DNA of 64,000 bases from a phage: the sequence record PZ386967.1. The stretch is one strand, 5' to 3'. Positions 17,146 to 63,353 of the stretch are shown here, piece by piece; the stretch's first letter is position 1, and each line of letters begins with the position of its first letter. The notes beneath the pieces are model-generated. The model did not search any database, had not been told where the DNA came from, and worked only from the letters and a program-made list of their open reading frames with translations. Both the position numbers and the translations under genes were made by a program.

Positions 17146-20130
17146 ATGTCAAAGCCAAGTTTCCTCCAGTTCATGCAGGAAAGAGATCAGTTGGACGAAG
17201 CGTTCAACTCCGCTCCGTATGAGCTGACCATGGGTAAGAAGAACGCAGGCGATGTGTTCTTCACCTTCGTCGACGAAGATGATAAGGAATACCGCATTCA
17301 GTTCTATACTCCTCAGGGACTGGGCAAGAGCGTTCGTCAGGTTTTCATCGGCCAGAAGCGCGGCTCCGTCTATCCTGACGCCATCGCTCGCTTCAAGAAC
17401 CCAATGCGCGTTATTGCTTCCATGATCGAAGCGACCAAACAATTCATGGCGACTCCTCTGGGCAAAACTATCGATGGCTATGCTGTCAACTTCTCGAAGA
17501 AAGCGCTGGATCGCGGTATGACCCTGATTCCTAAGATCATCCGCCAGTCCGGTCTGAAGCAGAAACTGAATGTCATGGACCTGACCTACGCGCCTGTCCC
17601 TGACCGTGGTTATGTGTGGCTAGTTCGTAAGGGCAAAGATCCGGCTCAGGTATTCGACGGTCCGAAGATGCAGGGTATCACCTGGGATGATCCAGACAAG
17701 GTCGGTGACGTTCCGGTTCAGAACAATACTCCGGATGTGGGTGTGTCATCTTCTGTTGATAATTCCAACGGATGGAAATTAACTTCAAACGGGGATCAGC
17801 CCATGTTGATATGGGCTGGTAAGGAGAGAGGCCGCACGAATACGGCAAATATCGCTCCCCACTACAATGAGCCGGGCGTGTATGTTGGCGCATACATGAA
17901 TGAGAAACCTGTGCGTGGGCAAAGTGCTGATTTCATTGCTCGTCAGTTGAAATTACCACAAGTCCCTATCAGTATCCTGAATGATTTCACCACGGCGTCC
18001 ACAAAATTTTGGAAAGGTTCTCAACAGAAATCTGCGCCTGTTGTGCCGGCAGGTTCGGACAGAAATAACCCAGCCAACATTATCGGTTCTGGAACTGCTG
18101 TTATTGATGCCAAACGGCTTGGTGCTCAGGAAGTAAACGTGGAACGATTCAAAAACGGCGTTCGCATGCGTTCTCGAAACGGTGACGTCGACATCAGTAT
18201 TTCTGACCCAGACTTTTCAAATGCAGCAAGTGCGGCTGATGCTGCCACAGCCTCTGTTGTGGTCAAGAACGGGCGTTACGAAGGTGCCATCAATTCAAAG
18301 CGCAAGATTGCCCGCACCTCGAACGAGCAGGGTACTGAATGGGATATCATCGGTGTCAACGGGGAAACCCTTGTCTCTATCAAGTTGAACAAAGTGTCTA
18401 AATCCACATCAGATTCGACCGAGGGTGCAACCAGTGTTGATCAATTACGTGACAGCGGTTTCATCGCTCGTGTTCTGGGTATCATTGATACCAACGTTGG
18501 GCTGGACACTTCTATTCTTCCTGGTGAAAACATCCGTCGCGTGGGCGCTGGTCGTTACACGACGGCAGGCGGGTTGGTTATCGTTGTCAACTTCACAAAC
18601 GTCCTCGCTGGTTTCGTTCAATACTCAGTTTTCAGCGAAATTGCTGAAGAGGAGAACGTGGCCAAAGGTAGCGCCCGTGACGTCGCCAAGGCGGTAATTG
18701 CGTCCATCTTTGAGGTTGCTAAGACCCAGTACACTGGCAAATGGGAAATTAGCGCAGTGCCAACAAGCGCTCCATATCCTATCAAAGCCATTCGCCGTTC
18801 TCGGGGCTGGGGTTATGTGGAAACCGCAAACTGGACTCTGACAGTGTCCGACGCTGTCCTGAATCGTGTGAAGCCAGGGAACACTGCTCTACTGGAACTC
18901 ATCAAAGAACCTCCGCGTGGCAAGCACCCGCTGGAAATCATCCCAGAGAAGGGCGACAAGACCCTGATGCTGAAAGATCGTATCACCGGGGCCATCTATG
19001 GTTCTATCGACCTGAATGCCCAAGGCGCTGATCTGGTCAACTCTGGAACCCTGAAGATACCAAGCAACGCCATGGTGTTTGGTGAGACTGTCAACGGTAT
19101 GTCCATTCGGTGGGATGTCAATTTCCCCGAAACGGGAAAATACGCCGGTACTTCTATGATAACCAACGTGACCTATTACTACGACAAAGGTAAAGTTGCA
19201 TTCACCCCAATTGTCTCTCAGAAAGGGCGTACCCTGAACAATCCGAAGACATATGAACTTCCTTTAAACAAAGATATGGTCCAGAGTGTGATTGATGAGA
19301 TTTCATCAAAAATGGTATATCTTTCCAGAAACCTCCAACAGTTGAAAAGTCAGTCATACAACCCAAACCAGGTGTTCTTGAACGATATAACCATCACGGA
19401 TAAAGGTGAAGTGATTTGGAATGATTACAACTTGTCTGACGGCAAAGTTACACAAATTATGCTGTCCATGATAAGCGCAGAAAATAAACGCCTGGAGAAA
19501 GTAGCAAACACGCCGGATATCAATATCACATTGCCCAAGAAACAAGCTGAAGTGGTAGAATTTATAAACCGGATGATCGATGTCGATCTCACCCCTTATG
19601 TGAGAACCCCCAAAAAACGTGATGTGGTATTATTTGACTCTTCTGAATTGTCGATAAACCAACTCAACAACATAGAACGCCTGGGAAGAGAAACAGGAAA
19701 ATGGTCTCTTCAGCCAAACGGTGGTATGGGTCATGCACTACTTCTGAAAAGCACGTCGCACAATCCGAAGGACGACCTTGCGGCATACGCCGACTCCATT
19801 CGCGACAACGCACCAAAAGGTCGCGACCTGGATTGGCAGATCTATGCAAGCCGTGATGGTCAGACTCTGAACGTGGACTGGGATATCACCTTCCGCCGCA
19901 ACACAACTGAAGGGGCATATCGCGAGTTCAAAGCTCAGATTGACCGCGCCAACCAGTACCTGCAGACACTGTACCGGGATGCGAAGTCCAAGGGTTACAA
20001 CCCGACTGAACCAAACCTGATGACTCTGGATAGCGCCCAGCAGTCTGACCAGTGGGCACGAGACTACGGGGAAGGCGCATACAGCGAGTACGAGCAGTCC
20101 CTGGGTGGCAACATGCAGATTAAGATCTGA
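17146..20130 (+). CDS. Large hypothetical protein (994 aa)
   Basis: Long uninterrupted ORF; no recognisable catalytic motif. Confidence 0.6.
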   Translation: MSKPSFLQFMQERDQLDEAFNSAPYELTMGKKNAGDVFFTFVDEDDKEYRIQFYTPQGLGKSVRQVFIGQKRGSVYPDAIARFKNPMRVIASMIEATKQFMATPLGKTIDGYAVNFSKKALDRGMTLIPKIIRQSGLKQKLNVMDLTYAPVPDRGYVWLVRKGKDPAQVFDGPKMQGITWDDPDKVGDVPVQNNTPDVGVSSSVDNSNGWKLTSNGDQPMLIWAGKERGRTNTANIAPHYNEPGVYVGAYMNEKPVRGQSADFIARQLKLPQVPISILNDFTTASTKFWKGSQQKSAPVVPAGSDRNNPANIIGSGTAVIDAKRLGAQEVNVERFKNGVRMRSRNGDVDISISDPDFSNAASAADAATASVVVKNGRYEGAINSKRKIARTSNEQGTEWDIIGVNGETLVSIKLNKVSKSTSDSTEGATSVDQLRDSGFIARVLGIIDTNVGLDTSILPGENIRRVGAGRYTTAGGLVIVVNFTNVLAGFVQYSVFSEIAEEENVAKGSARDVAKAVIASIFEVAKTQYTGKWEISAVPTSAPYPIKAIRRSRGWGYVETANWTLTVSDAVLNRVKPGNTALLELIKEPPRGKHPLEIIPEKGDKTLMLKDRITGAIYGSIDLNAQGADLVNSGTLKIPSNAMVFGETVNGMSIRWDVNFPETGKYAGTSMITNVTYYYDKGKVAFTPIVSQKGRTLNNPKTYELPLNKDMVQSVIDEISSKMVYLSRNLQQLKSQSYNPNQVFLNDITITDKGEVIWNDYNLSDGKVTQIMLSMISAENKRLEKVANTPDINITLPKKQAEVVEFINRMIDVDLTPYVRTPKKRDVVLFDSSELSINQLNNIERLGRETGKWSLQPNGGMGHALLLKSTSHNPKDDLAAYADSIRDNAPKGRDLDWQIYASRDGQTLNVDWDITFRRNTTEGAYREFKAQIDRANQYLQTLYRDAKSKGYNPTEPNLMTLDSAQQSDQWARDYGEGAYSEYEQSLGGNMQIKI

Positions 20131-20932: not shown

Positions 20933-21175
20933 GTCAATACGAAATAAAGGCATATAATTTTGCTCATTATTCGCCAAAAGGAAAGGACAATGAGCAAAAT
21001 CTTTACCCCGACACATGCGCAGCTACATGAATCTCTTGGACGGCTTCGCCCACTTCGAGCGCAACACGGCTGATAAACAGAATATATTGTATGGGGCTTG
21101 ACGACAACTGTGTATAGCTCAAAGTCGTGATGTAGACTATACTGTGACCGAAGTGTTCCAGAGGCAGAAGATCTA

Positions 21176-22237
21176 ATGAAATTTCTTGATGAACAATTCA
21201 TAAATTACGTTGCTCCTAGACTCGATAAATTCAAGTGGGAACGTGTTGGGTCTGTCGCAAATTTTAGATGCCCAATTTGTGGAGATTCTCTCAAAAGTGC
21301 TAACAAGCGACGCGGTTATTTTTTCTTCGATCGAGATAATGATTGCTTTCGGTTTAAATGTCATAATTGCCATAACATGAGTGGCTGGGCGTTTGAGTTC
21401 TGGTTGAAGAAGTTTGATGAACGCTTGTCCACTGAGTACAACATGGAGAAGTTCCGTCTGCTGGGTGATTCATCTTCCAAGCCGCTCCCGGCGCTGAAGC
21501 CTTTGCCAAAGCTGACACAATCAGCCCGTATCGGTTCAATGGAGGCTAAACGCGACGAGAGCCTCCTCGGCAATATGCTCCGGCTTGATCTGCTACCGCC
21601 TGACCATAAGGCTCGGCAGTACGTACAGGGCAGGGGAATGCCGGAGAGCACGTTGCCCCTCCTGTATTACACCCAACACTTCCGCCAGGATCTACTCCAG
21701 TTCGAAACGAATCCCGAGAAGCAGCTGAAAATCCCCGATGACGAGCGGCTGGTGATTCCGTTCTGGACTCAGGATGGTCGCATGAAGATCGTCCAGGGAC
21801 GTGCATTTGAAGTGCGTGATGGGGTACTGCGTTACTCTACTGTCAAGCCGCGCGATGAAGACACTAAGGTCTATGGTGAAGACCGGGTGAACTTTCACAA
21901 GACCAAGCTGGTTGTGGAAGGTCCGATTGACAGCCTGTTCCTACCCAACTGTCTTGCATCAGCCGACGCCGATCTACTGAGTGTGAAGGGTGACATCTAT
22001 ATCCCCGACAACCAGTACCGAAACCCGCAGGTATGTGATGGCATTCAGAAGATGATAGATAAAGGTGTCAAGGTCGTCCTCTTCCCGCCGAACATTCCGT
22101 GGAAGGACATCAATGATATGGTCATGCCTTCGAAGGGTAACATGGCCATACGAGACCTCCTGAAGCTGATTGCACAGAACGTCTACCAGGGGATGGCCGC
22201 ATCACTGCAATTTGCTGAACTGAGGAAAGTGAGATGA
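21176..22237 (+). CDS. 61: DNA primase, gp61-like (zinc ribbon plus TOPRIM)
   Basis: CPICGD..CHNCHN zinc-binding motif near N-terminus; VVEGPIDSLFL TOPRIM-like motif. Confidence 0.75.
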   Translation: MKFLDEQFINYVAPRLDKFKWERVGSVANFRCPICGDSLKSANKRRGYFFFDRDNDCFRFKCHNCHNMSGWAFEFWLKKFDERLSTEYNMEKFRLLGDSSSKPLPALKPLPKLTQSARIGSMEAKRDESLLGNMLRLDLLPPDHKARQYVQGRGMPESTLPLLYYTQHFRQDLLQFETNPEKQLKIPDDERLVIPFWTQDGRMKIVQGRAFEVRDGVLRYSTVKPRDEDTKVYGEDRVNFHKTKLVVEGPIDSLFLPNCLASADADLLSVKGDIYIPDNQYRNPQVCDGIQKMIDKGVKVVLFPPNIPWKDINDMVMPSKGNMAIRDLLKLIAQNVYQGMAASLQFAELRKVR

Positions 22238-22440
22238 CATTAGAAGAACTGAACAAACTGGACGACGGAGAGATCTTGCGGGGGTACTTGAAATCTCGTG
22301 AGGGATATGTCCTATCTGGGGAAGAGTCTCCGAGTTTCATCCACGGCTGGAAGAATGGTCAGGTGGACTTCCATGGGGTTCCCATCAGTGCTGAGCAAGC
22401 CGAATTGGCTCGCGAGTTTGTAAGATTTCGCCCGAACTAA
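22234..22440 (+). CDS. Hypothetical small protein
   Basis: ATGA overlap with primase gene. Confidence 0.4.
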   Translation: MTLEELNKLDDGEILRGYLKSREGYVLSGEESPSFIHGWKNGQVDFHGVPISAEQAELAREFVRFRPN

Positions 22441-22467
22441 AACTTTTTACTTCACATTACTTCCATC

Positions 22468-22563
22468 CAGGCCTCATTCGACGAGGCCTTTTAAAATACT
22501 TCAAAAATAATTTTAAAAAATTATTGAAAAAGACTTTACTCTTCAATAATGATGCACTATTAT
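22468..22563 (+). promoter_or_regulatory. Terminator hairpin plus early-type promoter TTTACT-N17-TATTAT
   Basis: AGGCCTC-attcgac-GAGGCCT hairpin with T-run, AT-rich tract, then promoter; coordinates approximate. Confidence 0.45.
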
Positions 22564-22636
22564 AGTTCACATAGGGCGGTAACACACCGCCGAATGAAAA
22601 GTGAAATGAACCAACTACATTATGAGGAATTACATC

Positions 22637-23125
22637 ATGGCTACCACCAAAACTCTGATCACCAACGGCACCATCTCTTTCGAACTGAACACCGAAGTTG
22701 CTAAAGTTGAAATGTTCCGCATCGCTCAGGCAGCTGGCTTCACTGGTGGCAAAACTTCCTTCATGAACCTGCTGAACGGTAAAGTGAAAGCGACTAACGG
22801 CTTCACCCTGGTAGAGCAGGTTGTGGTTGATAAAGCTGTGGTTGCTAAGACTGCCGACAAAGTTGGTATGCTGAAAAACCTGGGTCACGACATCCACATT
22901 GTCGAAGCAAGCACCGAAACTTACGGCACCATCGTAGTCGGTAAAGGTCGCATCCAGCTGAACCCGCTGAACAACGGTTCCTTCTCTGTGATGGTCTTCC
23001 CTAAGAAGGGGTACGACAACACCGACATCGTGAAAGCTGTTGGCGGCGAAGCAAAAGCTCAGTACGTCAAAATGGGTAAACTGAGCGCCGACGCAGTTGA
23101 AGCTCTGGTGAACAAACTGGCTTAA
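22637..23125 (+). CDS. Hypothetical protein, likely highly expressed
   Basis: Start trimmed to MATTKT after GAGGAATTACATC leader; codon usage biased to CTG/AAA/GGT/GAA. Confidence 0.55.
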   Translation: MATTKTLITNGTISFELNTEVAKVEMFRIAQAAGFTGGKTSFMNLLNGKVKATNGFTLVEQVVVDKAVVAKTADKVGMLKNLGHDIHIVEASTETYGTIVVGKGRIQLNPLNNGSFSVMVFPKKGYDNTDIVKAVGGEAKAQYVKMGKLSADAVEALVNKLA

Positions 23126-23307
23126 TCCAGACGTGTAACATAGGGGAGGCAACTCCCCCTATCAGGTCTTTGGAGGAGATCGCAGTCATTCAATCCTCTT
23201 TGGTGCTCTCTGGGTTGCTGACACATCCAGAACAAAGTCTCCCCCAGCTCCTCGAGTAGTTCACTTTCACTTTAAATACCTCTGCATTCATTGTGGAGGT
23301 ATTTCTT

Positions 23308-27413: not shown

Positions 27414-27482
27414 ATTGGTCTAAACCTACTACCGTTATATCATCAGGGGTGAGAGATCACCCCTATTCATCAGGAGTTCTAT

Positions 27483-27776
27483 ATGTTCCAAACGTTATTG
27501 TTAGTCCCTGGCCAACCAGGTATCTTGCTCGAACACAACAGCAAAATGGAAGCGGAGAATGTTCTGCGCAACGTGAAGGTGGCCACTGCTTGGCACAACG
27601 GCGGCGAAGTCACGGCTATCCCGTTGAACTACACGGATCCAATGGATACTGTGAACCGTACTCACATCCTTCTAGACCTCAGCAAATTACCTGCAGACAA
27701 ACGCCGGGATTTTGTTGTTAACATCAAGAATTACATTACCACCGAACAGATCAAACTCCACGAAGGCAAGGCATAA
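27483..27776 (+). CDS. Hypothetical small protein between nrdA and nrdB
   Basis: 97 aa ORF, partly overlapped by the nrdB N-terminal extension frame. Confidence 0.35.
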   Translation: MFQTLLLVPGQPGILLEHNSKMEAENVLRNVKVATAWHNGGEVTAIPLNYTDPMDTVNRTHILLDLSKLPADKRRDFVVNIKNYITTEQIKLHEGKA

Positions 27777-29221: not shown

Positions 29222-29461
29222 ATGACCGACTCTGAAGTCTACGACACCTCAATGAAATACCACGCCATGACAGCCAAACGCGGCTGTGCTGCTAACAAGG
29301 CATATTGGATAGGTGAACTCAGAACCCTCCGCGCCGTGGTCAACCACGAAATCATTATGAATCACGACAACAACGGTCAAGGTAAAGACCGAGAAGAATT
29401 GAAGGTTGCTCGTGAACGTCTTCGCTTTGGTCTGACCAAAGCCCTTGAATATGTGAAATAA
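29222..29461 (+). CDS. Hypothetical protein
   Basis: Start trimmed to MTDSEV after CAGGAACTATATC leader. Confidence 0.5.
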   Translation: MTDSEVYDTSMKYHAMTAKRGCAANKAYWIGELRTLRAVVNHEIIMNHDNNGQGKDREELKVARERLRFGLTKALEYVK

Positions 29462-29472
29462 GGAACTATATC

Positions 29473-41360: not shown

Positions 41361-41434
41361 TTTAAGTTCAGAAACTGTTCAAAAGATGAAGGGGCTGCTA
41401 TAATAGCAGCTCCTTTTGTTTATTGGAGCAGTTT

Positions 41435-42094
41435 ATGTCCTACTCCCTGAAGGGGTTGATGAAGCGCCCCGTCCACACATTCTTTAAACCACCCGTCGTA
41501 AAGGGGATCTACCCAGCACGAGGGCAAATCTACTACGTCAAAGGCTCCAATGGTAGCGGTAAATCCACTGTGCCGTCTCAGCTGGCGGAGAGGGATCCTC
41601 AGGCGTATGTCGTGACCCATAATGGCAAGGTCATGCTGACTGTCTGTCCTTCGTTCAACGTGGTCTGTATCGGTAAATATGACAAGTCGAAGTCCAAGGG
41701 GGTTGATTCCCTGAAGGACACTGAGCAGATGTTGTTCGCGTTGTCTATTGCTGACCAACCAGAATACTTGAAATATGATGTGATTTTCGAAGGTATCATT
41801 CCATCCACATTATTGAGTTCTTGGATCCCCCGTCTGACACGCCCACCACGTGAATTGGTTGTGCTCTTTATGGACACTCCTCTTGAAACGTGTATCACCC
41901 GCGTTAAATCACGTAACGGCGGTGTGGACTTCAATGAAAGTCTGGTGGTCGAGAAGTGGGAGAGAGTTCATGACCATCGTCAACGACATAAAGACTTGTT
42001 CCCTACGGTAGCTGCGGGTATGATGAAGTCTCACGGCCTAACGGTAGACCAGGCTGTGATGGCATTCCTCTGTCGTGATTTTGGGAGTATCTGA
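41435..42094 (+). CDS. P-loop kinase of unknown substrate (candidate nucleotide or DNA-base kinase)
   Basis: Start trimmed to MSYSL; Walker A GSNGSGKST; first gene of a translationally coupled nucleotide-metabolism operon. Confidence 0.5.
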   Translation: MSYSLKGLMKRPVHTFFKPPVVKGIYPARGQIYYVKGSNGSGKSTVPSQLAERDPQAYVVTHNGKVMLTVCPSFNVVCIGKYDKSKSKGVDSLKDTEQMLFALSIADQPEYLKYDVIFEGIIPSTLLSSWIPRLTRPPRELVVLFMDTPLETCITRVKSRNGGVDFNESLVVEKWERVHDHRQRHKDLFPTVAAGMMKSHGLTVDQAVMAFLCRDFGSI

Positions 42095-43140
42095 TGGAAA
42101 TCAAAGCAATTAACAACAATGACATGCTGAAGCAGGCTGTCTTGGCTATCCGTGAATTCGGGATCGAATCTGATCCTGGTAATGCTGAAATCAATACTGA
42201 TAGCACCCGCTTCCTTGATGGTGTGACTATCACTGTTTCCGATATTCGTGACCGCTGGCTCTCCGTTGAAGGTCGCAACTCATCGGCTATCGCTGCCATC
42301 GGCGAGACCTTCTGGGTGTTGTCAGGTCGCAACGACATAAAGTTCCTGTCACGCGTATTGCCTCGCGCTGCTAACTTTTCGGATGATGGGGTAACATGGC
42401 GAGCTGCTTATGGTCCGCGTCTGTACGCCCATGGCCAGCTGGATAGCGTTATCAACCGCCTGCGCAAGAACCCAAACACTCGTCAGGCGTACCTCACCAT
42501 CTATGACCCGGCTCTAGATTCGGATGCTGGTCTGGCGAAGTTCAGCGAGAGCGGCGAAGCAAAGACTAAAGACATGGTGTGTAACCTGGCTCTGTTGTTC
42601 GCCATCGTTGAAGGTCGTCTGAACCTGACGGTCATCAATCGCTCACAGGATGTTCTGTGGGGGATGAGTTCAATCAACTTCATTGAGTTCTCTATTCTTC
42701 AGGAAGTGATTGCTCGGGTGTTAGATGTTGATGTCGGTCAGTACAAGCTCTTCTCCAACAATCTTCATTACTACAACAATGAAGTCAGCCAGAAGCAGCT
42801 GGGAAAGATCACGAAGGACACCAAAGTAGAAGCTGGGTTCATCAACACCATGATTCACTTCACGAACGTGACCAACCAGAACCATATCCGCAATCTGTTC
42901 ACTGGTGTGCTTCATCACTGTGATATCGGTAGCCCGTGGGAAACTGTGGTTGCTCACCTGAAGGAATACGATGCGGATCGCGGCCTGATTGTACAGATGG
43001 CGTACTGTCTGCACTGCAAACTGAACGAAAAGCTCATTAACCTGGACCTGATTCAGGATCATGGCTTGAACACCGCGCTCACCCATTCTCCGGTTGACCG
43101 CAAGATCGTTGATCCTAAGTTCCTGGAAGGTGTAGTATGA
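42094..43140 (+). CDS. Thymidylate-synthase-family pyrimidine hydroxymethylase-like enzyme (dUMP or dCMP hydroxymethylase candidate)
   Basis: Catalytic-Cys region DMVCNLALLF and NRSQDVLWG align to T4 gp42 (FMCTNT, MRSNDVVFG) and TS (PCH, QRSCDVFLG); lacks canonical TS WNP and PCH motifs; about 100 aa C-terminal extension. Confidence 0.6.
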   Translation: MEIKAINNNDMLKQAVLAIREFGIESDPGNAEINTDSTRFLDGVTITVSDIRDRWLSVEGRNSSAIAAIGETFWVLSGRNDIKFLSRVLPRAANFSDDGVTWRAAYGPRLYAHGQLDSVINRLRKNPNTRQAYLTIYDPALDSDAGLAKFSESGEAKTKDMVCNLALLFAIVEGRLNLTVINRSQDVLWGMSSINFIEFSILQEVIARVLDVDVGQYKLFSNNLHYYNNEVSQKQLGKITKDTKVEAGFINTMIHFTNVTNQNHIRNLFTGVLHHCDIGSPWETVVAHLKEYDADRGLIVQMAYCLHCKLNEKLINLDLIQDHGLNTALTHSPVDRKIVDPKFLEGVV

Positions 43141-43706
43141 TGTACCCAAATCTTGAATTCTTTACGGGGCGCAAACGCTCCGGTAAGGACTTCTGTTTGG
43201 AGTCCCTCATCAGCTATCACCAACTACAGGGTGATATGGACATCCAGCGCCTTTCGTTCTCAGATGAACTGCGCCGTGTGGCCAACTACATCTACCCATG
43301 GCTGCCAGCGGAGGTAGAGGATGCCGTGAAGGACGTTCCTTACGTGCACCCTGATAACCCCAAGGGCTTAACTCCACGGCAGATCTGGCTTCATCTGGGC
43401 AGCGATACGGGCTTGCGTTACGTACAGCCTGATCTGTTCCTGGCATTCTTCAAGCGCTTCCAGCTTCCTCTGGTAGAGCAGAACCCCCACGTCCATTATA
43501 TCGTGAGTGATCTGCGTACCCCTCAGGAATATGAATGGGCGCTGAGTACGAAATGTCCTATCACCCGTATTTCAAAGGCCGACCGTGCTGGTATCATAGA
43601 GGACGATATAGAGGCTTTCATTGACCAAATGAAAGTGGACTACGAATTCCTCAATCCATTTGATGGTTGGGAACCGTTCGTTAAATTCTACGGAGAACGT
43701 AAATGA
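43137..43706 (+). CDS. 1: Deoxynucleoside monophosphate kinase, gp1-like
   Basis: FTGRKRSGKDF matches T4 gp1 LSGVKRSGKDT; VSDLRTPQEYE resembles gp1 VPDTRQDHEMD. Confidence 0.65.
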   Translation: MMYPNLEFFTGRKRSGKDFCLESLISYHQLQGDMDIQRLSFSDELRRVANYIYPWLPAEVEDAVKDVPYVHPDNPKGLTPRQIWLHLGSDTGLRYVQPDLFLAFFKRFQLPLVEQNPHVHYIVSDLRTPQEYEWALSTKCPITRISKADRAGIIEDDIEAFIDQMKVDYEFLNPFDGWEPFVKFYGERK

Positions 43707-44257
43707 TCACAGCAGGACATATCAAAAGCCTGCTCGAACTCCAAAAGGCCACCAACGTGGCCTATTTTGGGGAAGAGTGGAAGAATGTATGGAGTCAGAA
43801 CGCAGTCATCAACTCTATCTATCGTGAGTGGGCAGAGTTCCTTGATGAAACCACCCGTGACTGGAAGGTCTATGGCAACGACATCAGGTTTGACCATACG
43901 AACGCAGTTTATGAACTGGTGGACGTGGTACACTTCATGTTGTGCTTCATCCTTGTGGACCGCACCAAAGGTGAGATCGAAGAAGAATTTGAAGTCCTTA
44001 GCAATCGCGAATTCACCCCATCTGCTTTGGGTGTTGTAGGGCATCGCAATGTTACGTACCGCCTTGGGCAATTCATGAACGATCCTTGCGTTGAGACTCT
44101 CATGTTCTTCCTGTCGTCTGCGTGTTCTTATATGGAGATCGACATTGAGACTTACATGCTGGCACACAAACGCAAGAACGATCGCAATCGTCTGCGTGCT
44201 TCTGGTGGTGTGGATTACGACAAGTCCGCAGAAACCCCTCTGACCCTGGAGTTCTAA
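43703..44257 (+). CDS. 56: All-alpha NTP pyrophosphatase, gp56 dCTPase/dUTPase-like
   Basis: YELVDVVHFMLCF matches T4 gp56 FELVDIFHFVLNMF. Confidence 0.6.
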   Translation: MITAGHIKSLLELQKATNVAYFGEEWKNVWSQNAVINSIYREWAEFLDETTRDWKVYGNDIRFDHTNAVYELVDVVHFMLCFILVDRTKGEIEEEFEVLSNREFTPSALGVVGHRNVTYRLGQFMNDPCVETLMFFLSSACSYMEIDIETYMLAHKRKNDRNRLRASGGVDYDKSAETPLTLEF

Positions 44258-44799
44258 TGTTTACAGTCGTCGTTTCATACCATGCGGAGAACGCTGCTCA
44301 GGCATCCTCCAAATTCGCCGAGCACATCATCGGCGGCGGCCATAATGTATTCCTTACCGAATACAACAGGCCTGTTAAACCGGGCGACGGTCTTTCGGCG
44401 ACTGTTACGCATAAGATCGCCAGCGAGCAACCAGAGTCTCTGTTCAGAATGATCGAAGAGTATGCCAGTGGTGGCATCAAGATACCAGATGAACTGGTAG
44501 ACGTCTATTTCGAAGGCTCGATCTATTACATCCACGCTATGCCAAAGGATATAACCATTGAACAGATGATGTATATCCTGAATATAGCACTGAACACTGC
44601 GTGCATCAACCGCACGAACTACAACAATCTGCGCAATATGTACCTAACCGACCGGCATAATGACGCATCGTCACTTGTTGAGACAATGTCCCTGAAGAGC
44701 ATCCAAGAGGCGGTTAACATTTTGTCCCAGAAGGTTATGGGTGTAGACTTACTAACGACGATTAACAACAAAGAGGAAGTGAAATGGCCAGTTCATTAA
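44257..44799 (+). CDS. Hypothetical protein within the nucleotide-metabolism operon
   Basis: 180 aa ORF, start overlaps upstream stop. Confidence 0.5.
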   Translation: MFTVVVSYHAENAAQASSKFAEHIIGGGHNVFLTEYNRPVKPGDGLSATVTHKIASEQPESLFRMIEEYASGGIKIPDELVDVYFEGSIYYIHAMPKDITIEQMMYILNIALNTACINRTNYNNLRNMYLTDRHNDASSLVETMSLKSIQEAVNILSQKVMGVDLLTTINNKEEVKWPVH

Positions 44800-48420: not shown

Positions 48421-48452
48421 TTTAATCTGTATTGAAGAGTTACAACTACATC

Positions 48453-49658
48453 ATGAGGCTGGAAATGAACGTCAAAACATTCAATATTCCGATCGACAAT
48501 GAAGGGTTGGTAGTTGAGCGACTGAAGAAGCTCGAGCGCACTGCCGAAAGGTTGGGTGTTCCGTTTCCGACTGTGACTTATGGTGAACCCTTCAAAACCC
48601 ACACCCGCGACTTCACTGGTGAGATCCTTACTCACTGGTGGAAACCTGTTACTCTCGAAGGCGAAGGCATTGACCGCCCCGTCTCTTATGGTGGCTGGAA
48701 GATCATCGGTCAGTTCAATCACGAATATCCAAAGGTTATTCTTAACCGCCTGTCCGACAACATCAATCCTGACTTCATCCGTCACTTCGAGACAGAGAAC
48801 GTCTCTTGGTGTCAGCATTGCAATCTAGTCATCCGTCGCAAGAACACGTATGTGATTGAAAATGAGGAAACGCATACCCAGATGCTGATTGGTAGCACCT
48901 GTATGCATCATTATGTGCCTCATCAGAAGTCCCTTGACGCGATTATGTCTTACTATCTGGAAATCCAAGAGTTCTTCATGCCAGACGAGGACGACCCAGA
49001 GGGTATATATCGCGTCCAAAATGAGCGCTTCGTCGACACCCACAGTTTCCTGCGCGCATGCTTCCAGGTGATGCTAGCAGGCGTGGATATCAAGTCTGAA
49101 CTGTTTGACAAAGTACTGGGCTATGTCCGGTCTCATCAGAAACCAAAAGCAGGTTCCGATGAAGAGTATTTCGTAAACAAGGCACACGAATACCGTGAAG
49201 ATGCCGAGTCGGAAATGTACCATATGAAGCTTTTCATCAGTGCGCTGTCCGAATCTAATGAGTTCAATGTTCGCCTGAAACGCATGTGTGAACCCGGCTA
49301 TCACCTCATCAAGGATAACAACACAGTCCGCTGGGGTGCCAAGAAGTATTACGATTACATCCATCGTCCTCGTACTGACCGCAAGGCGGAGAACAAATGG
49401 GTGGGTGAAGTCGGTGAAATGCTGGAAGTGCAAGTCAGGTTCGACAAGCGCACCTTCCTCTTCTCCAATGAATATGGTGATAGCTACCTGTTTACTTTCA
49501 AAACAGCAGAAGGCAATACAATTACCTGGAAGACCTCTTATATGGATACAGAGTTCTTGCAGGGTGATATGATCATCCGTGGTCGTGTTAAAGAACTGAC
49601 TGAGTACAACGGCGTTAAACAAACTCAGGTCACCAGAGCTAAATTGAGGAAGTTATGA
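48453..49658 (+). CDS. Hypothetical protein (402 aa) with Cys/His cluster
   Basis: Start trimmed to MRLEMNVK; CQHCN ... CMHH region suggests metal binding. Confidence 0.5.
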   Translation: MRLEMNVKTFNIPIDNEGLVVERLKKLERTAERLGVPFPTVTYGEPFKTHTRDFTGEILTHWWKPVTLEGEGIDRPVSYGGWKIIGQFNHEYPKVILNRLSDNINPDFIRHFETENVSWCQHCNLVIRRKNTYVIENEETHTQMLIGSTCMHHYVPHQKSLDAIMSYYLEIQEFFMPDEDDPEGIYRVQNERFVDTHSFLRACFQVMLAGVDIKSELFDKVLGYVRSHQKPKAGSDEEYFVNKAHEYREDAESEMYHMKLFISALSESNEFNVRLKRMCEPGYHLIKDNNTVRWGAKKYYDYIHRPRTDRKAENKWVGEVGEMLEVQVRFDKRTFLFSNEYGDSYLFTFKTAEGNTITWKTSYMDTEFLQGDMIIRGRVKELTEYNGVKQTQVTRAKLRKL

Positions 49659-60834: not shown

Positions 60835-61344
60835 TTATTTGTCAGGGTTCACTAAAACAGGGGTGGATACCAGTTCGCCGTTCTTCACAGAATGCTGGAC
60901 TACAACAAACTGATCGACCATGCGATATACTTCAATTCCAGCAGCCAGCATGTCAATAATGCCGTCTATGATACGATATGGTCGGTCATAGAACACTTTA
61001 GCGATCTTGCCACTGTCGATAATACGACGGGTGCACTCTGGGCATGGACTATGAGTGACAAACATCACTAGGCCACAACAGTCTTCAGTGTGCTGGGGGA
61101 GTTTGCTCAGAGCATTCTCCTCGGCGTGGATAACACCCACCGATACCAGTTGACCGTCTACTTCCTTCTCACAGACATTAGGAGCGCCAGGAGCAGTCCC
61201 GTTCCAACCGATAGACAGGGGCTGGTCAACACGCGGGTCAACGATAACACAGCCGACCTTCAGGCGCTGGGCATAGCTGGACAGGGCGTATGCATGAGCC
61301 GAGCGCATATGCGCAAATAACATACGGGGTTTGATAGCCATCAC
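60835..61344 (-). CDS. cd: dCMP deaminase
   Basis: Zinc-binding HAEENAL and SPCPEC motifs. Confidence 0.8.
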   Translation of the reverse strand: MMAIKPRMLFAHMRSAHAYALSSYAQRLKVGCVIVDPRVDQPLSIGWNGTAPGAPNVCEKEVDGQLVSVGVIHAEENALSKLPQHTEDCCGLVMFVTHSPCPECTRRIIDSGKIAKVFYDRPYRIIDGIIDMLAAGIEVYRMVDQFVVVQHSVKNGELVSTPVLVNPDK

Positions 61345-62054: not shown

Positions 62055-62368
62055 GACAATACTCCTTTCAGAGCTAAAACGGAAAGCACACCAATAATCA
62101 ACCATGTCGGGATAATTGGCTTGCAGTTCATGTGGGTTTCTCCACCTTCGATGTTCGGGCTTCCTTGTATAAGAACGTGTTCACAGGAAGCTCTGAACGT
62201 CATTACACAGCCCATCAACACAATTGGCCTGATATAATAACCCGTTTTAGTTTGCTTCACGATACATGGAGAGGAGAAGCGCAGATATGGATCCCCTTTC
62301 CGGTAGCCTGTGATTGTGACCTTCTGCACTTCAGAAGGCACTTTTTGGCCAGGAAAATAAATTTTCAT
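62051..62368 (-). CDS. Hypothetical protein with C-terminal TM anchor
   Basis: C-terminal hydrophobic tail [15 protein letters not shown]. Confidence 0.45.
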
Positions 62369-62925
62369 ATTTCAATCCCCAGATTGGTGTATAACAACTC
62401 AGACAGGGTTACAGGACGCTTGAATTGTTCCCAGCTGCAGTTCAGGTATTCGCGCTCTTCACGCATTTCACCGTGAAGATGGCCATGGATATTATACGCC
62501 CAGCGGTCTAATTGATAAGGAACGTGAGTGGTCAGCACACGACCAACCGGAGTATCACGCTCATACATCGCACCAAAGGAGCTAATCCATCCCTCTTGAT
62601 ACAGCTGCATCAACATCTTGAATTTGTCATGGTTGCCTTGCGCCACCCTGATGATAAAGTTCGGTCGCCAGTCATCAGGGACGGGGCGGCGCTTGAACTC
62701 ATCAATATTCCGCTTGGCACCCTCGCGCATCAGGCGAATGAACCCCTCAGCCCCGATGAAGCAGATGTCCCCAGCCAGTTCAAGGACGTCTCGGGACTTC
62801 AGCCCCTGAAAGATACTGTCGATAACTGCAGCATCATGTGCCTCTTGGGTATCGAACCCACGGGGCTTGAAGATCTTCTTGTGTCCGAGGTGAGTGTCGC
62901 CCAGATACTTTACAATTCCTGCCAT
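62365..62925 (-). CDS. Calcineurin-like metallophosphoesterase
   Basis: GDTHLGH, GNHD and HGHLH motifs; start trimmed to [10 protein letters not shown]. Confidence 0.7.
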
Positions 62926-63353
62926 TATGGTCTCCTCAACCATTCTAAAATCGGTACGTTCACAAACCCTTTATGCCAGCGATGGGGTTTATGGCCTCTG
63001 TTGTGTTCGAGCAAACACGTATCCGGTGGGACACTGAAGTGGATGCCTTCGATGTCGTAGTAATGCCCATCAATCAGAGTATACACATGACCTTCGGTCT
63101 GACTGTAATGGATCTCTGCTTGGGGATACACGTGCTTCAGAAGTAGAGCAACCTGGTAACACTTCCCGTTCTTCCCCACGTACTCGACATCCACCTGTTG
63201 TGGAAACACATCTTTGATAAGGTTTATCAATCTCGTGATGTCATTTACGACAACCGAACGTTTCATATCACCTCTCCCGAGGATTCGTTGGTGAACCAAT
63301 GATACTCTATCCCGGATATAGAAAAGCCCCTCACGGGGCTTGATCGTCTTCAT
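62925..63353 (-). CDS. Hypothetical protein
   Basis: 142 aa ORF; start uncertain. Confidence 0.4.

Follow-up and report, generated by a model that had tools for sequence, protein, structure and literature searches.

Deoxyuridylate (dUMP) hydroxymethylases of the SPO1 gp29, phiW-14 and ViI type are a third, long-known class in the thymidylate synthase (TS) superfamily, and the enzyme has already been described for phages ViI, CBA120 and Ag3 (Kutter et al, 2011; Lee et al, 2018, 2021). The proteins of these three phages that carry the name 'TS' group with the dUMP hydroxymethylases, and CBA120 does not incorporate 3H-thymidine (Kutter et al, 2011; PMC3184105). In ViI-like phages, a 5-hydroxymethyl-dU DNA kinase (5-HMUDK) co-occurs with the dUMP hydroxymethyltransferase (Lee et al, 2018; PMC5889632). 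The ViI pathway downstream of 5-hydroxymethyl-dU (5-hmdU) has been reconstituted, and kinase activity of ViI gp67 on 5-hmdU DNA has been demonstrated (Lee et al, 2021; PMC8989533). Thymine hypermodification in ViI/Ag3-type phages starts with the hydroxymethylase, a role that was inferred in 2011 and set in its pathway in 2018–2021. The enzyme thereby helps these phages to evade restriction enzymes, and the hypermodification is relevant to phage therapy as well as to the sequencing and cloning of such phage DNA. Our literature search turned up no paper in which a dUMP hydroxymethylase from the Ackermannviridae was assayed directly. The gene is still called 'thymidylate synthase' in most database records, and its kinase neighbour is called 'terminase small subunit' in RefSeq-derived records (e.g. 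NC_013693, NC_015296).

Here, we analysed a 348-aa TS-family protein encoded in a stretch of phage DNA of 64,000 nucleotides (PZ386967.1; hereafter, the window). Our analysis covers family membership, diagnostic residues, fold, synteny and, in the closest relative, the downstream genes. We consider the protein very probably a dUMP hydroxymethylase of the TS superfamily, a predicted activity for which the assignment rests on homology, signatures, genomic context and the known chemistry of ViI DNA.

Results

Genomic context

The window comes from an Ackermannviridae phage (Ag3/ViI-like, Aglimvirinae) and shares 98% DNA identity with Escherichia phage vB_EcoM-ZQ1. A 2.9-kb query (41400-44300) gave 98.5% nucleotide identity to ZQ1, and the aligned blocks, which cover nearly all of the window, were 92–99% identical. 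The ORF of interest starts with ATG and belongs to a string of genes with overlapping stops and starts: 5-HMUDK, hydroxymethylase, dNMP kinase, dUTPase, ACT-domain protein and UvsX (Table 1). The order in ViI is identical, and that in phiW-14 is TS homologue, dNMP kinase, dUTPase and UvsX. The 5-HMUDK, which has a GGAG 6 nt upstream of its ATG and is 87.7% identical to ViI gp67, overlaps the hydroxymethylase start with its stop (TGATG), and the hydroxymethylase stop in turn overlaps the dNMP kinase start (ATGA). We infer that the dUTPase-family product acts as a dUTPase/dTTPase, feeding dUMP and depleting dTTP. With the 5-HMUDK, dNMP kinase, dUTPase and dCMP deaminase all in the window, the gene is associated with a 5-hmdU pathway. 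Searches with tblastn found no homologues of ViI gp226, gp243, gp247 or the polymerase within the window. In the ZQ1 genome, these genes lie outside the part equivalent to the window, and homologues of gp226, gp243 and gp247 are present there; for aGPT-Pplase2 and PLP decarboxylase, homologues were found only in this 98% identical phage.

Table 1. Coordinates of the features at the hydroxymethylase locus and of related genes in the window.
Feature	Position	Strand	Remarks
Terminator-like hairpin, 13 pairs then T-run	41388..41416	+	Directly precedes the kinase gene, at the head of the gene string
5-hydroxymethyl-dU DNA kinase (5-HMUDK)	41435..42094	+	ViI gp67 orthologue; Pfam PF18748 HMUDK_HMUD1, E=2e-108
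Predicted dUMP hydroxymethylase (deoxyuridylate hydroxymethyltransferase, TS superfamily)	42094..43140	+	348 aa; orthologue of ViI gp66 (thyA, Vi01_060c)
Active-site segment D160-M-V-C163	42571..42582	+	Catalytic Cys163 and Asp160 at Cys-3; translation DMVC
Loop G190-M-S-S-I194-N195	42661..42678	+	Asn195 as predicted base-specificity residue (E. coli Asn177)
C-terminal helical extension, residues ~250-348	42841..43137	+	Outside any Pfam domain; similar to the additional five-helix domain of MilA
dNMP kinase	43137..43706	+	phrog_139, E=1e-47; 90.5% identical to ViI dnk; inferred to phosphorylate 5-hmdUMP
Dimeric-type dUTPase / NTP pyrophosphohydrolase	43703..44257	+	Pfam PF08761 dUTPase_2, E=4e-9; phrog_173
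ACT_phage domain protein	44257..44799	+	Same overlapping gene string; Pfam PF24021, E=2e-79; 55% identical to ViI Vi01_057c
dCMP deaminase (dUMP supply)	60835..61344	-	Pfam PF00383, E=4e-16; annotated dCMP deaminase in ZQ1

Relationship to characterized enzymes

The protein matches Pfam PF00303 (E=1e-15; score 58 bits, cut-off 24.3) and phrog_3676 (E=5e-183). It is 76.8% identical to ViI gp66 (YP_004327431) and 36% identical to ORF14 of the M6-like phage Ab18. It is also 42% identical to phiW-14 gp230 and 34% identical to the SPO1 gp29-like protein of Goe2 (itself 99.7% identical to SPO1 gp29), two values that cover the core only, the C-terminal regions being left unaligned by BLAST. A 70% identical homologue (P0023) already carries the name deoxyuridylate hydroxymethyltransferase. 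Identity to ThyA/td is 22–24%, and T4 gp42 was reached by profile comparison only; the protein is closer to characterized dUMP hydroxymethylases than to TS or dCMP hydroxymethylase. All seven NCBIfam TS equivalog models scored below their cut-offs (108–427 bits), including the best-scoring one (57.9 bits, cut-off 327), so the protein does not qualify as a ThyA equivalog.

Catalytic centre and diagnostic residues

Cys163 and Asp160 are both invariant (67/67 homologues). Asp160 corresponds to E. coli L143 and T4 dCH Asp145; at this site every dUMP hydroxymethylase and gp42 have Asp, and ThyA/td have Leu. An acidic residue at Cys-3 is a signature of hydroxymethylases (PMC6400193, PMC13326640), and Asp160 conforms to it. 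The catalytic and binding residues expected of the superfamily are also present: E71, Y106, R183, D186, H225 and Y227, each as invariant among the 67 homologues as C163, align to TS Glu58, Tyr94, Arg166, Asp169, His207 and Tyr209. The pairing of Tyr106 with Tyr94 rests on MAFFT and the gp42 hhalign alignment, as that segment is displaced in the HMMER and hhalign alignments to E. coli TS. The MAFFT and hhalign alignments also differ over residues 88-103, the region of the Trp80/Trp83 equivalents.

Other residues separate the protein from the remaining members of the superfamily. Asn in place of Asp169 (D169N) is the signature of the 5-hydroxylase variant (PMC13326640); since Asp186 aligns with Asp169, this variant is excluded, and the Asn of 5-hydroxy-dCMP synthases of the RB69 gp48 / DLP3 gp80 type is missing. 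The MilA triad of Asp186, Ala176 and Lys133', of which the last two go with ribose preference (PMC5175136), is replaced by Asn195, Ser184 and Arg130. At the position of gp42 Asp179 the protein has Asn195 or, in other alignments, Ile194, neither of them Asp. The water-holding Ser-x-Tyr motif of gp42 (Ser94/Tyr96) is replaced by Ala104-Ala105-Tyr106, and 63/67 family members have Ala or Gly at position 104; the Ser belongs to the hydroxymethylase signature of dCH, and its replacement weighs against the assignment as a hydroxymethylase. ThyA has Leu143, a P-C-H motif and a folate-closing C-terminal tail where the query has Asp160, V-C-N and a C-terminal domain of helices, and 'IYDP' stands in place of 'AWNV/P'. 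The original prediction, made from the letters of the DNA, was therefore right that the WNP and PCH hallmarks are missing and right to set the protein apart from both canonical Td and canonical gp42; the residues of the protein point instead to the dUMP hydroxymethylase class.

Two substitutions, which likewise weigh against the assignment, set the Ackermannviridae clade apart within the family. Its members have Val or Ile before the catalytic Cys, where the dUMP hydroxymethylase family has Pro, and they have Gly and a five-residue insertion with a clade-conserved Arg39 in the N-terminal loop, where most family members have Arg. This N-terminal-loop Arg of dUMP hydroxymethylases is likely the equivalent of the phosphate-binding Arg21.

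Base-specificity loop

Codons 42661-42681 translate to GMSSINF, and a gapless count from Cys163 puts Ile194 at +31 and Asn195 at +32. The original prediction had read DMVC and both of these residues correctly, and its reference values are also right, as E. coli ThyA Asn177 is Cys146+31 and T4 gp42 Asp179 is Cys148+31; MilA Asp186 is likewise Cys155+31 (numbering worked out from the alignment and PMC5175136). It had concluded from the gapless count that the base-specificity residue is non-canonical and that dUMP and dCMP could not be told apart as substrates. However, the loop is G-x3-N/D in TS, gp42 and MilA and G-x4-N in dUMP hydroxymethylases, which have one residue more from the conserved Gly (E. 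coli G173) to the specificity Asn. We found this additional residue in the query, ViI gp66, phiW-14 gp230, Ab18 ORF14, SPO1 gp29 and 66 database homologues. With a loop of this length, a fixed offset from Cys misreads the specificity residue in these enzymes: the Cys+31 rule is right for ThyA, td, gp42 and MilA, but it is wrong for every dUMP hydroxymethylase checked and is therefore inapplicable to this family.

When the gap is allowed for, Asn195 falls opposite Asn177, with a one-residue gap, in three HMMER pairwise alignments to thymidylate synthases and in an hhalign profile alignment to the E. coli enzyme (probability 99.4%). Asn195 is invariant (67/67 sequences), the residue before it is hydrophobic (I, V or A) among the homologues, comparable to TS Phe176, and the published MilA alignment sets an Asn of SPO1 dUH at the specificity position (PMC5175136). 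By alignment, then, the residue at the E. coli Asn177 position is Asn and not Asp, which indicates uracil specificity with dUMP as the predicted substrate; neither the non-canonical residue nor the unreadable substrate survives the family-wide one-residue insertion.

The loop stayed ungapped, with gp42 Asp179 opposite Ile194, when gp42 was included in the MAFFT alignment or compared as a single sequence by hhalign. We judged this to be an alignment artefact, because TS, gp42 and MilA have one common loop length, because the TS alignments put the gap in and because the hydrophobic-Asn pair mirrors Phe176-Asn177 of TS.

Fold and C-terminal domain

The AF2 model has a pLDDT of 94 overall and of 94–99 across most of the C-terminal extension, in which DSSP assigns helices 262-277, 282-290, 298-310, 323-331 and 335-338. 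Foldseek returned MilA as the best PDB match, aligned over its full length (351 columns, TM 0.71/0.77, E=4e-19), and then TS, aligned over ~245–270 columns only; MilA and about 400 TS chains were matched at probability 1.00. Model, Foldseek matches and PF00303 agree on the TS fold and domain. MilA has an extra five-helix C-terminal domain (PMC5175136), and the five helices of the model and the full-length alignment indicate a domain of this type in the query. The query continues for 121 residues beyond the conserved His225-x-Tyr227, E. coli ThyA for 55 and T4 gp42 for 28, which bears out the predicted extension of roughly 100 aa; all 67 homologues have 93–194 residues after this motif. The extension and the absent WNP and PCH are traits of the dUMP hydroxymethylase family and not peculiar to this gene.

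It is conceivable, though we consider it unlikely, that the Ackermannviridae enzymes form a functionally distinct sub-type of dUMP hydroxymethylase, marked by Pro to Val/Ile and by Arg to Gly with the insertion, whose clade-specific C-terminal helical domain might form a docking site for the co-translated dNMP kinase, dUTPase or 5-HMUDK and so channel 5-hmdUMP. If true, this would refine a known enzyme and not add a new kind.

Alternative activities

Most GenBank records annotate the 348-aa protein as a thymidylate synthase, and an ordinary enzyme of this kind would convert dUMP to dTMP. The PF00303 match, the PHROG name and the Asn at the uracil-specificity position are what such an enzyme would show, and tblastn found one place per record in related phages, that is, no second TS-family gene. 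We nevertheless regard this activity as very improbable, given that every NCBIfam TS equivalog is far below its cut-off (≤58 bits), that the water-excluding Leu143 is Asp, that Asn replaces His147 and that helices take the place of the C-terminal tail that closes over folate. Identity to TS (22–24%) is also lower than the 34–42% to known dUMP hydroxymethylases, the related CBA120 incorporates no 3H-thymidine (PMC3184105), and the adjacent gene encodes a kinase acting on 5-hmdU in DNA (PMC8989533).

If, instead, the gapless Cys+31 position mattered and specificity were relaxed, the protein could be a cytosine-nucleotide hydroxymethylase, acting on dCMP like T4 gp42 or on CMP like MilA. MilA is the best PDB match by sequence (E=1.5e-17) as well as by fold, the Cys-3 Asp is common to gp42, MilA and the query, and gapless gp42 alignments do set Asp179 opposite Ile194. 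This has only the slightest chance of being correct: both candidate positions lack Asp, one being an invariant Asn and the other hydrophobic, and Arg130 and Ser184, in contrast to their MilA counterparts, are deoxyribose-type residues (PMC5175136). Moreover, C is not replaced by hydroxymethyl-C in CBA120 (PMC3184105), the neighbouring kinase of the operon has 5-hmdU as its substrate, and it is T that is modified in ViI DNA (PMC5889632, PMC8989533). An equally slight chance attaches to a different C5 product, either a 5-hydroxy-pyrimidine as made by RB69 gp48 / DLP3 gp80 or a new one. Phage TS homologues with unexpected products have been found recently (PMC13326640), and the clade-specific changes before Cys163 and in the N-terminal loop lie near the active site. 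Yet the D169N change of 5-hydroxylases is missing, the Asp186 in its place being invariant; ViI gp66 also has Ile for Pro, and ViI DNA holds a 5-hmdU-derived base (PMC5889632). Both clade-specific substitutions occur in Kuttervirus-type homologues that are 74–77% identical, and the adjacent kinase requires 5-hmdU (PMC8989533).

Proposed chemistry and pathway

For a dUMP hydroxymethylase, the chemistry can be proposed by analogy with TS, T4 dCH and SPO1 dUH. Cys163 would attack C6 of dUMP, whose O4/N3-H face would be read by Asn195, and the one-carbon unit of 5,10-methylene-tetrahydrofolate would pass to the activated C5. Tetrahydrofolate would then be eliminated, and the exocyclic methylene would be taken by water activated by Asp160, and not by hydride, to give 5-hydroxymethyl-dUMP and tetrahydrofolate. 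The dUMP would be supplied by the dUTPase-family enzyme and dCMP deaminase, and the neighbouring dNMP kinase and host NDP kinase would make 5-hmdUTP. The phage polymerase would put 5-hmdU into DNA, where the adjacent 5-HMUDK would phosphorylate it. Later enzymes would be encoded outside the window, in ZQ1 by the homologues of ViI gp247, a serine:DNA transferase, and gp226, a PLP decarboxylase. Enzymes of these types would turn a portion of the 5-hmdU into the ViI-type hypermodified thymine, 5-(2-aminoethoxy)methyl-dU, which would shield the DNA from host nucleases.

Comparison with known systems

ViI gp66 is, together with the 'TS' homologues of CBA120 and Ag3, the closest known counterpart; it has 346 aa to the 348 of the query and the same DM(V/I)CN and WGMSSIN motifs. 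The two differ by sequence divergence only, mainly in the C-terminal domain, and in phage lineage, as the window phage is not a Kuttervirus but one of the Aglimvirinae (Ag3-like). SPO1 gp29 and phiW-14 gp230, which are biochemically studied dUMP hydroxymethylases (EC 2.1.2.8), share with the query the G-x4-N loop, Asn at Cys+32 (also present in Ab18 ORF14 and ViI gp66), Asp at Cys-3, Asn at Cys+1, Asp at Cys+23 and a C-terminal extension of ~100–140 aa. However, they have Pro before the catalytic Cys, where the query has Val, and an N-terminal 'S-R-N' loop, where the query has 'P-G-N' and the five-residue insertion.

The more distant enzymes share less. MilA, the CMP 5-hydroxymethylase of Streptomyces rimofaciens (PDB 5b6d, 5jnh), is the best match among solved structures and has the same Asp at Cys-3, but it is only about 20% identical, its loop is one residue shorter with Asp186 (cytosine) at Cys+31, and it has Ala176 and Lys133' in place of Ser184 and Arg130. 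T4 gp42 (PDB 1B5E; ternary complex, PMC6400193) has the TS fold, the catalytic Cys and the Cys-3 Asp, which in gp42 activates water, and it too makes a hydroxymethyl pyrimidine nucleotide for DNA modification; it differs in having Asp179 (cytosine) at Cys+31, in its length of 246 aa without a C-terminal helical domain, and in Ser-x-Tyr where the query has Ala-x-Tyr. ThyA and T4-like td (EC 2.1.1.45) share with the query the fold, the catalytic Cys, the equivalents of Arg166, Asp169, Asn177, His207 and Tyr209, and dUMP as (predicted) substrate. They have Leu143 for Asp, His147 for Asn, a loop one residue shorter, and the WNP, PCH and C-terminal closing tail that the query lacks, and their product is methyl, whereas that of the query is predicted to be hydroxymethyl.

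Family assignment and phage of origin

The ORF called on the window encodes a 348-aa protein (query) with an ATG start. Its translation contains D160-M-V-C163 and G190-M-S-S-I194-N195-F, so that Ile falls at +31 and Asn at +32 in an ungapped count from the catalytic Cys. At Cys+31, E. coli ThyA and T4-like td have Asn and T4 dCMP hydroxymethylase (gp42, dCH) has Asp, as does MilA, the Streptomyces rimofaciens CMP 5-hydroxymethylase (Asp186 = Cys155+31 by alignment, numbering matched to PMC5175136). The thymidylate synthase (TS) motifs WNP and PCH are replaced by IYDP and VCN, and 121 residues follow the conserved His-x-Tyr, vs 55 in ThyA and 28 in gp42. Pfam detects TS as the sole domain (residues 67-235, E=1e-15), and no NCBIfam TS equivalog model comes near its cut-off (58 bits vs 327).

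The query shares 99% identity with database proteins of ZQ1/Ag3-like phages and 76.8% with its orthologue gp66 of Salmonella phage ViI (annotated thyA). The closest relatives beyond Ackermannviridae are gp230 of Delftia phage phiW-14 (42%), ORF14 of the M6-like Pseudomonas phage Ab18 (36%) and a protein of Bacillus phage Goe2 (34%), itself 99.7% identical to SPO1 gp29; identity to true thymidylate synthases is just 22-24%. The dUMP hydroxymethylases of SPO1 and phiW-14 are classic, biochemically studied enzymes (PMC8989533, PMC3184105, PMC5175136), and one homologue (P0023, 70% identity) carries the name deoxyuridylate hydroxymethyltransferase, given by its depositor. In the literature, Kutter et al. 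placed the TS homologue in one cluster with the phiW-14, SPO1 and YuA dUMP hydroxymethylases and reported no incorporation of 3H-thymidine by CBA120 (PMC3184105), and in Lee et al. (2018) the gene of ViI-like phages is labelled dUMP hydroxymethyltransferase, beside the 5-hmdU DNA kinase (5-HMUDK; PMC5889632). The enzyme is already known, although the literature searched yielded no direct assay with an enzyme from Ackermannviridae.

The 2.9-kb region 41400-44300 shows 98.5% DNA identity to Escherichia phage vB_EcoM-ZQ1 (Ackermannviridae, Aglimvirinae) and about 92% to Shigella phage Ag3. ZQ1 aligns with nearly the entire window in blocks of 92-99% identity; elsewhere 96-99%, identity falls to 92% or breaks at ~21000-23250, 27475-27775 and 29226-29462, suggesting that the two phages differ there by small indels or segment replacements. 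Large ORFs lacking a Pfam match at E<=0.001 are 17146-20130(+) (994 aa), 21176-22237(+) (353 aa), 48432-49658(+) (408 aa) and 62365-62943(-) (192 aa); those of 994 and 408 aa are 'hypothetical protein' genes in ZQ1.

Base-specificity loop

In MAFFT alignments, every dUMP hydroxymethylase has the loop G-x4-N after a conserved R-S-x-D-x3-G (GMSSIN in the query and ViI, GTGSIN in phiW-14, GALGAN in Ab18, GTFGAN in the SPO1 type), as against G-LPF-N in TS and G-FRN-D in gp42; the family therefore carries one extra loop residue, and its loop Asn lies at Cys+32 in every member. Asn195 does not vary across the query and 66 homologues, and it is always preceded by Ile, Val or Ala, a hydrophobic-Asn pair resembling TS Phe176-Asn177. 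A one-residue gap brings Asn195 opposite Asn177 in each of three HMMER alignments against thymidylate synthases of solved structure, and hhalign of the family's profile against ThyA/td (probability 99.4%) agrees. Where gp42 entered as a single sequence (MAFFT, hhalign), the loop stayed ungapped and gp42 Asp179 fell opposite Ile194, a placement that we took as a cheaper-gap artefact given the common loop length of TS, gp42 and MilA. In the MilA paper's alignment, the equivalent of the cytosine-specific Asp is Asn in SPO1 dUMP hydroxymethylase (PMC5175136).

The original prediction was right in all its sequence observations, and in holding the protein to be neither Td nor gp42; it belongs instead to the dUMP hydroxymethylase family. 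Its proposal of a non-canonical specificity residue gives way to a canonical Asn195, displaced, as judged by alignment, by a family-wide one-residue insertion. The substrate, described there as impossible to read off, is readable from the residues as dUMP.

Other diagnostic residues

An acidic residue at Cys-3 (T4 dCH Asp145; E. coli Leu143 position) activates water for hydroxymethylation (PMC6400193; PMC13326640), and D145N abolishes T4 dCH activity (PMC6400193). This position is Asp160 in the query, invariant in the family, and Leu in ThyA and td. Asp186, at the position of the D169N change that marks 5-hydroxy-dCMP synthases (PMC13326640), is retained and invariant. Arg130 and Ser184 are of the deoxyribose type, ribose-preferring MilA having Lys133' and Ala176 (alignment; PMC5175136). 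In combination, these residues are read as specifying uracil, deoxyribose and hydroxymethyl. The family differs from gp42 in the dCH Ser-x-Tyr motif, whose Ser is replaced by Ala or Gly (63 of 67 members).

An F-S-D-D-G motif at residues 95-99 (window 42376-42390), which has no TS counterpart, is fully or almost fully conserved in the 67 members (S96 and D97 in 67/67); speculatively, it might do the work of T4 dCH Ser94 and hold the catalytic water and Asp in place. Two substitutions are Ackermannviridae-specific, at residues 28-39 and 162 (window ~42175-42210 and 42577-42579). The N-terminal loop reads P-G-N-A-E-I-N-T-D-S/G-T-R vs S-R-N in the family, with loss of the Arg, a five-residue insertion and a new, conserved Arg39; immediately before the catalytic Cys, Val or Ile takes the place of the family's Pro.

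Fold and C-terminal extension

The AlphaFold2 model (67-sequence alignment; pLDDT 94, pTM 0.93) predicts a TS core followed by five helices within residues 262-338. The top Foldseek match in the PDB was a full-length one to MilA (351 columns, TM 0.71/0.77), with thymidylate synthases ranking after it over about 245-270 columns. In MilA, five additional C-terminal helices form a domain set apart from the active site, and truncation yields insoluble protein (PMC5175136); the modelled extension would be exactly such a domain. In all 67 members 93-194 residues lie beyond H-x-Y, and the total lengths of the phiW-14, Ab18 and SPO1 proteins are 357, 348 and 383 aa; the extension is thus a family trait. 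Many metagenomic G-x4-N members reach 470-590 aa and so have an additional fused domain. Database entries place members (P0058, P0063, P0068, P0077, P0102) on bacterial contigs of great length, 0.19-4.7 Mb, from Klebsiella pneumoniae, Rhizobium rhizogenes, Paenarthrobacter and Herbiconiux.

Gene neighbourhood and proposed pathway

Gene string around the query, in order
Feature	Coordinates	Strand	Remarks
Strong terminator-like hairpin	41388-41416	+	13 pairs + T-run; directly upstream of kinase gene
5-hmdU DNA kinase	41435-42094 (ORF from 41423)	+	PF18748 E=2e-108; 87.7% identity to ViI gp67
dUMP hydroxymethylase (query)	42094-43140	+	second in string
dNMP kinase			next after query gene
dUTPase_2-family pyrophosphohydrolase			next after dNMP kinase
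ACT_phage domain protein	44257-44799	+	PF24021 E=2e-79; 55% identity to ViI
UvsX			last named gene, after ACT_phage gene

The genes from 5-HMUDK to UvsX are joined by stop/start overlaps of 1-16 nt (TGATG, ATGA), which suggests translational coupling along the string. The kinase gene is named 'terminase small subunit' in RefSeq-derived records and PHROG (phrog_800), and its ZQ1 annotation has a later start (175 aa). Because the PF18748 match runs over residues 18-212 in the long ORF and ATG 41435 has a GGAG 6 nt upstream, the product is likely 219 aa. Activity on 5-hmdU DNA has been demonstrated for ViI gp67 (PMC8989533). The window also encodes dCMP deaminase and both ribonucleotide reductase subunits. 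Homologues of the enzymes for later steps in ViI, namely gp247 serine:DNA transferase, gp226 PLP decarboxylase and the second kinase, gp243, were not found by tblastn in the 64-kb window; ZQ1 carries them at 89%, 91% and 47% identity, respectively.

In the pathway that we propose, Cys163 would attack C6 of dUMP and C5 would receive the methylene of CH2-THF; on departure of THF, Asp160-activated water would add to the exocyclic methylene, giving 5-hmdUMP. Kinases would raise this to 5-hmdUTP for incorporation by the polymerase, and 5-hmdU in DNA would be phosphorylated by the adjacent kinase. By analogy with ViI, the transferase and decarboxylase may then turn part of it into 5-(2-aminoethoxy)methyl-dU (PMC5889632, PMC8989533). 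The gene order of ViI matches (5-HMUDK, TS homologue, dNMP kinase, dUTPase, ACT, UvsX), and that of phiW-14 runs TS homologue, dNMPK, dUTPase, UvsX; between dUTPase and UvsX, the window and ViI have the ACT_phage gene, whereas phiW-14 has just a small hypothetical gene.
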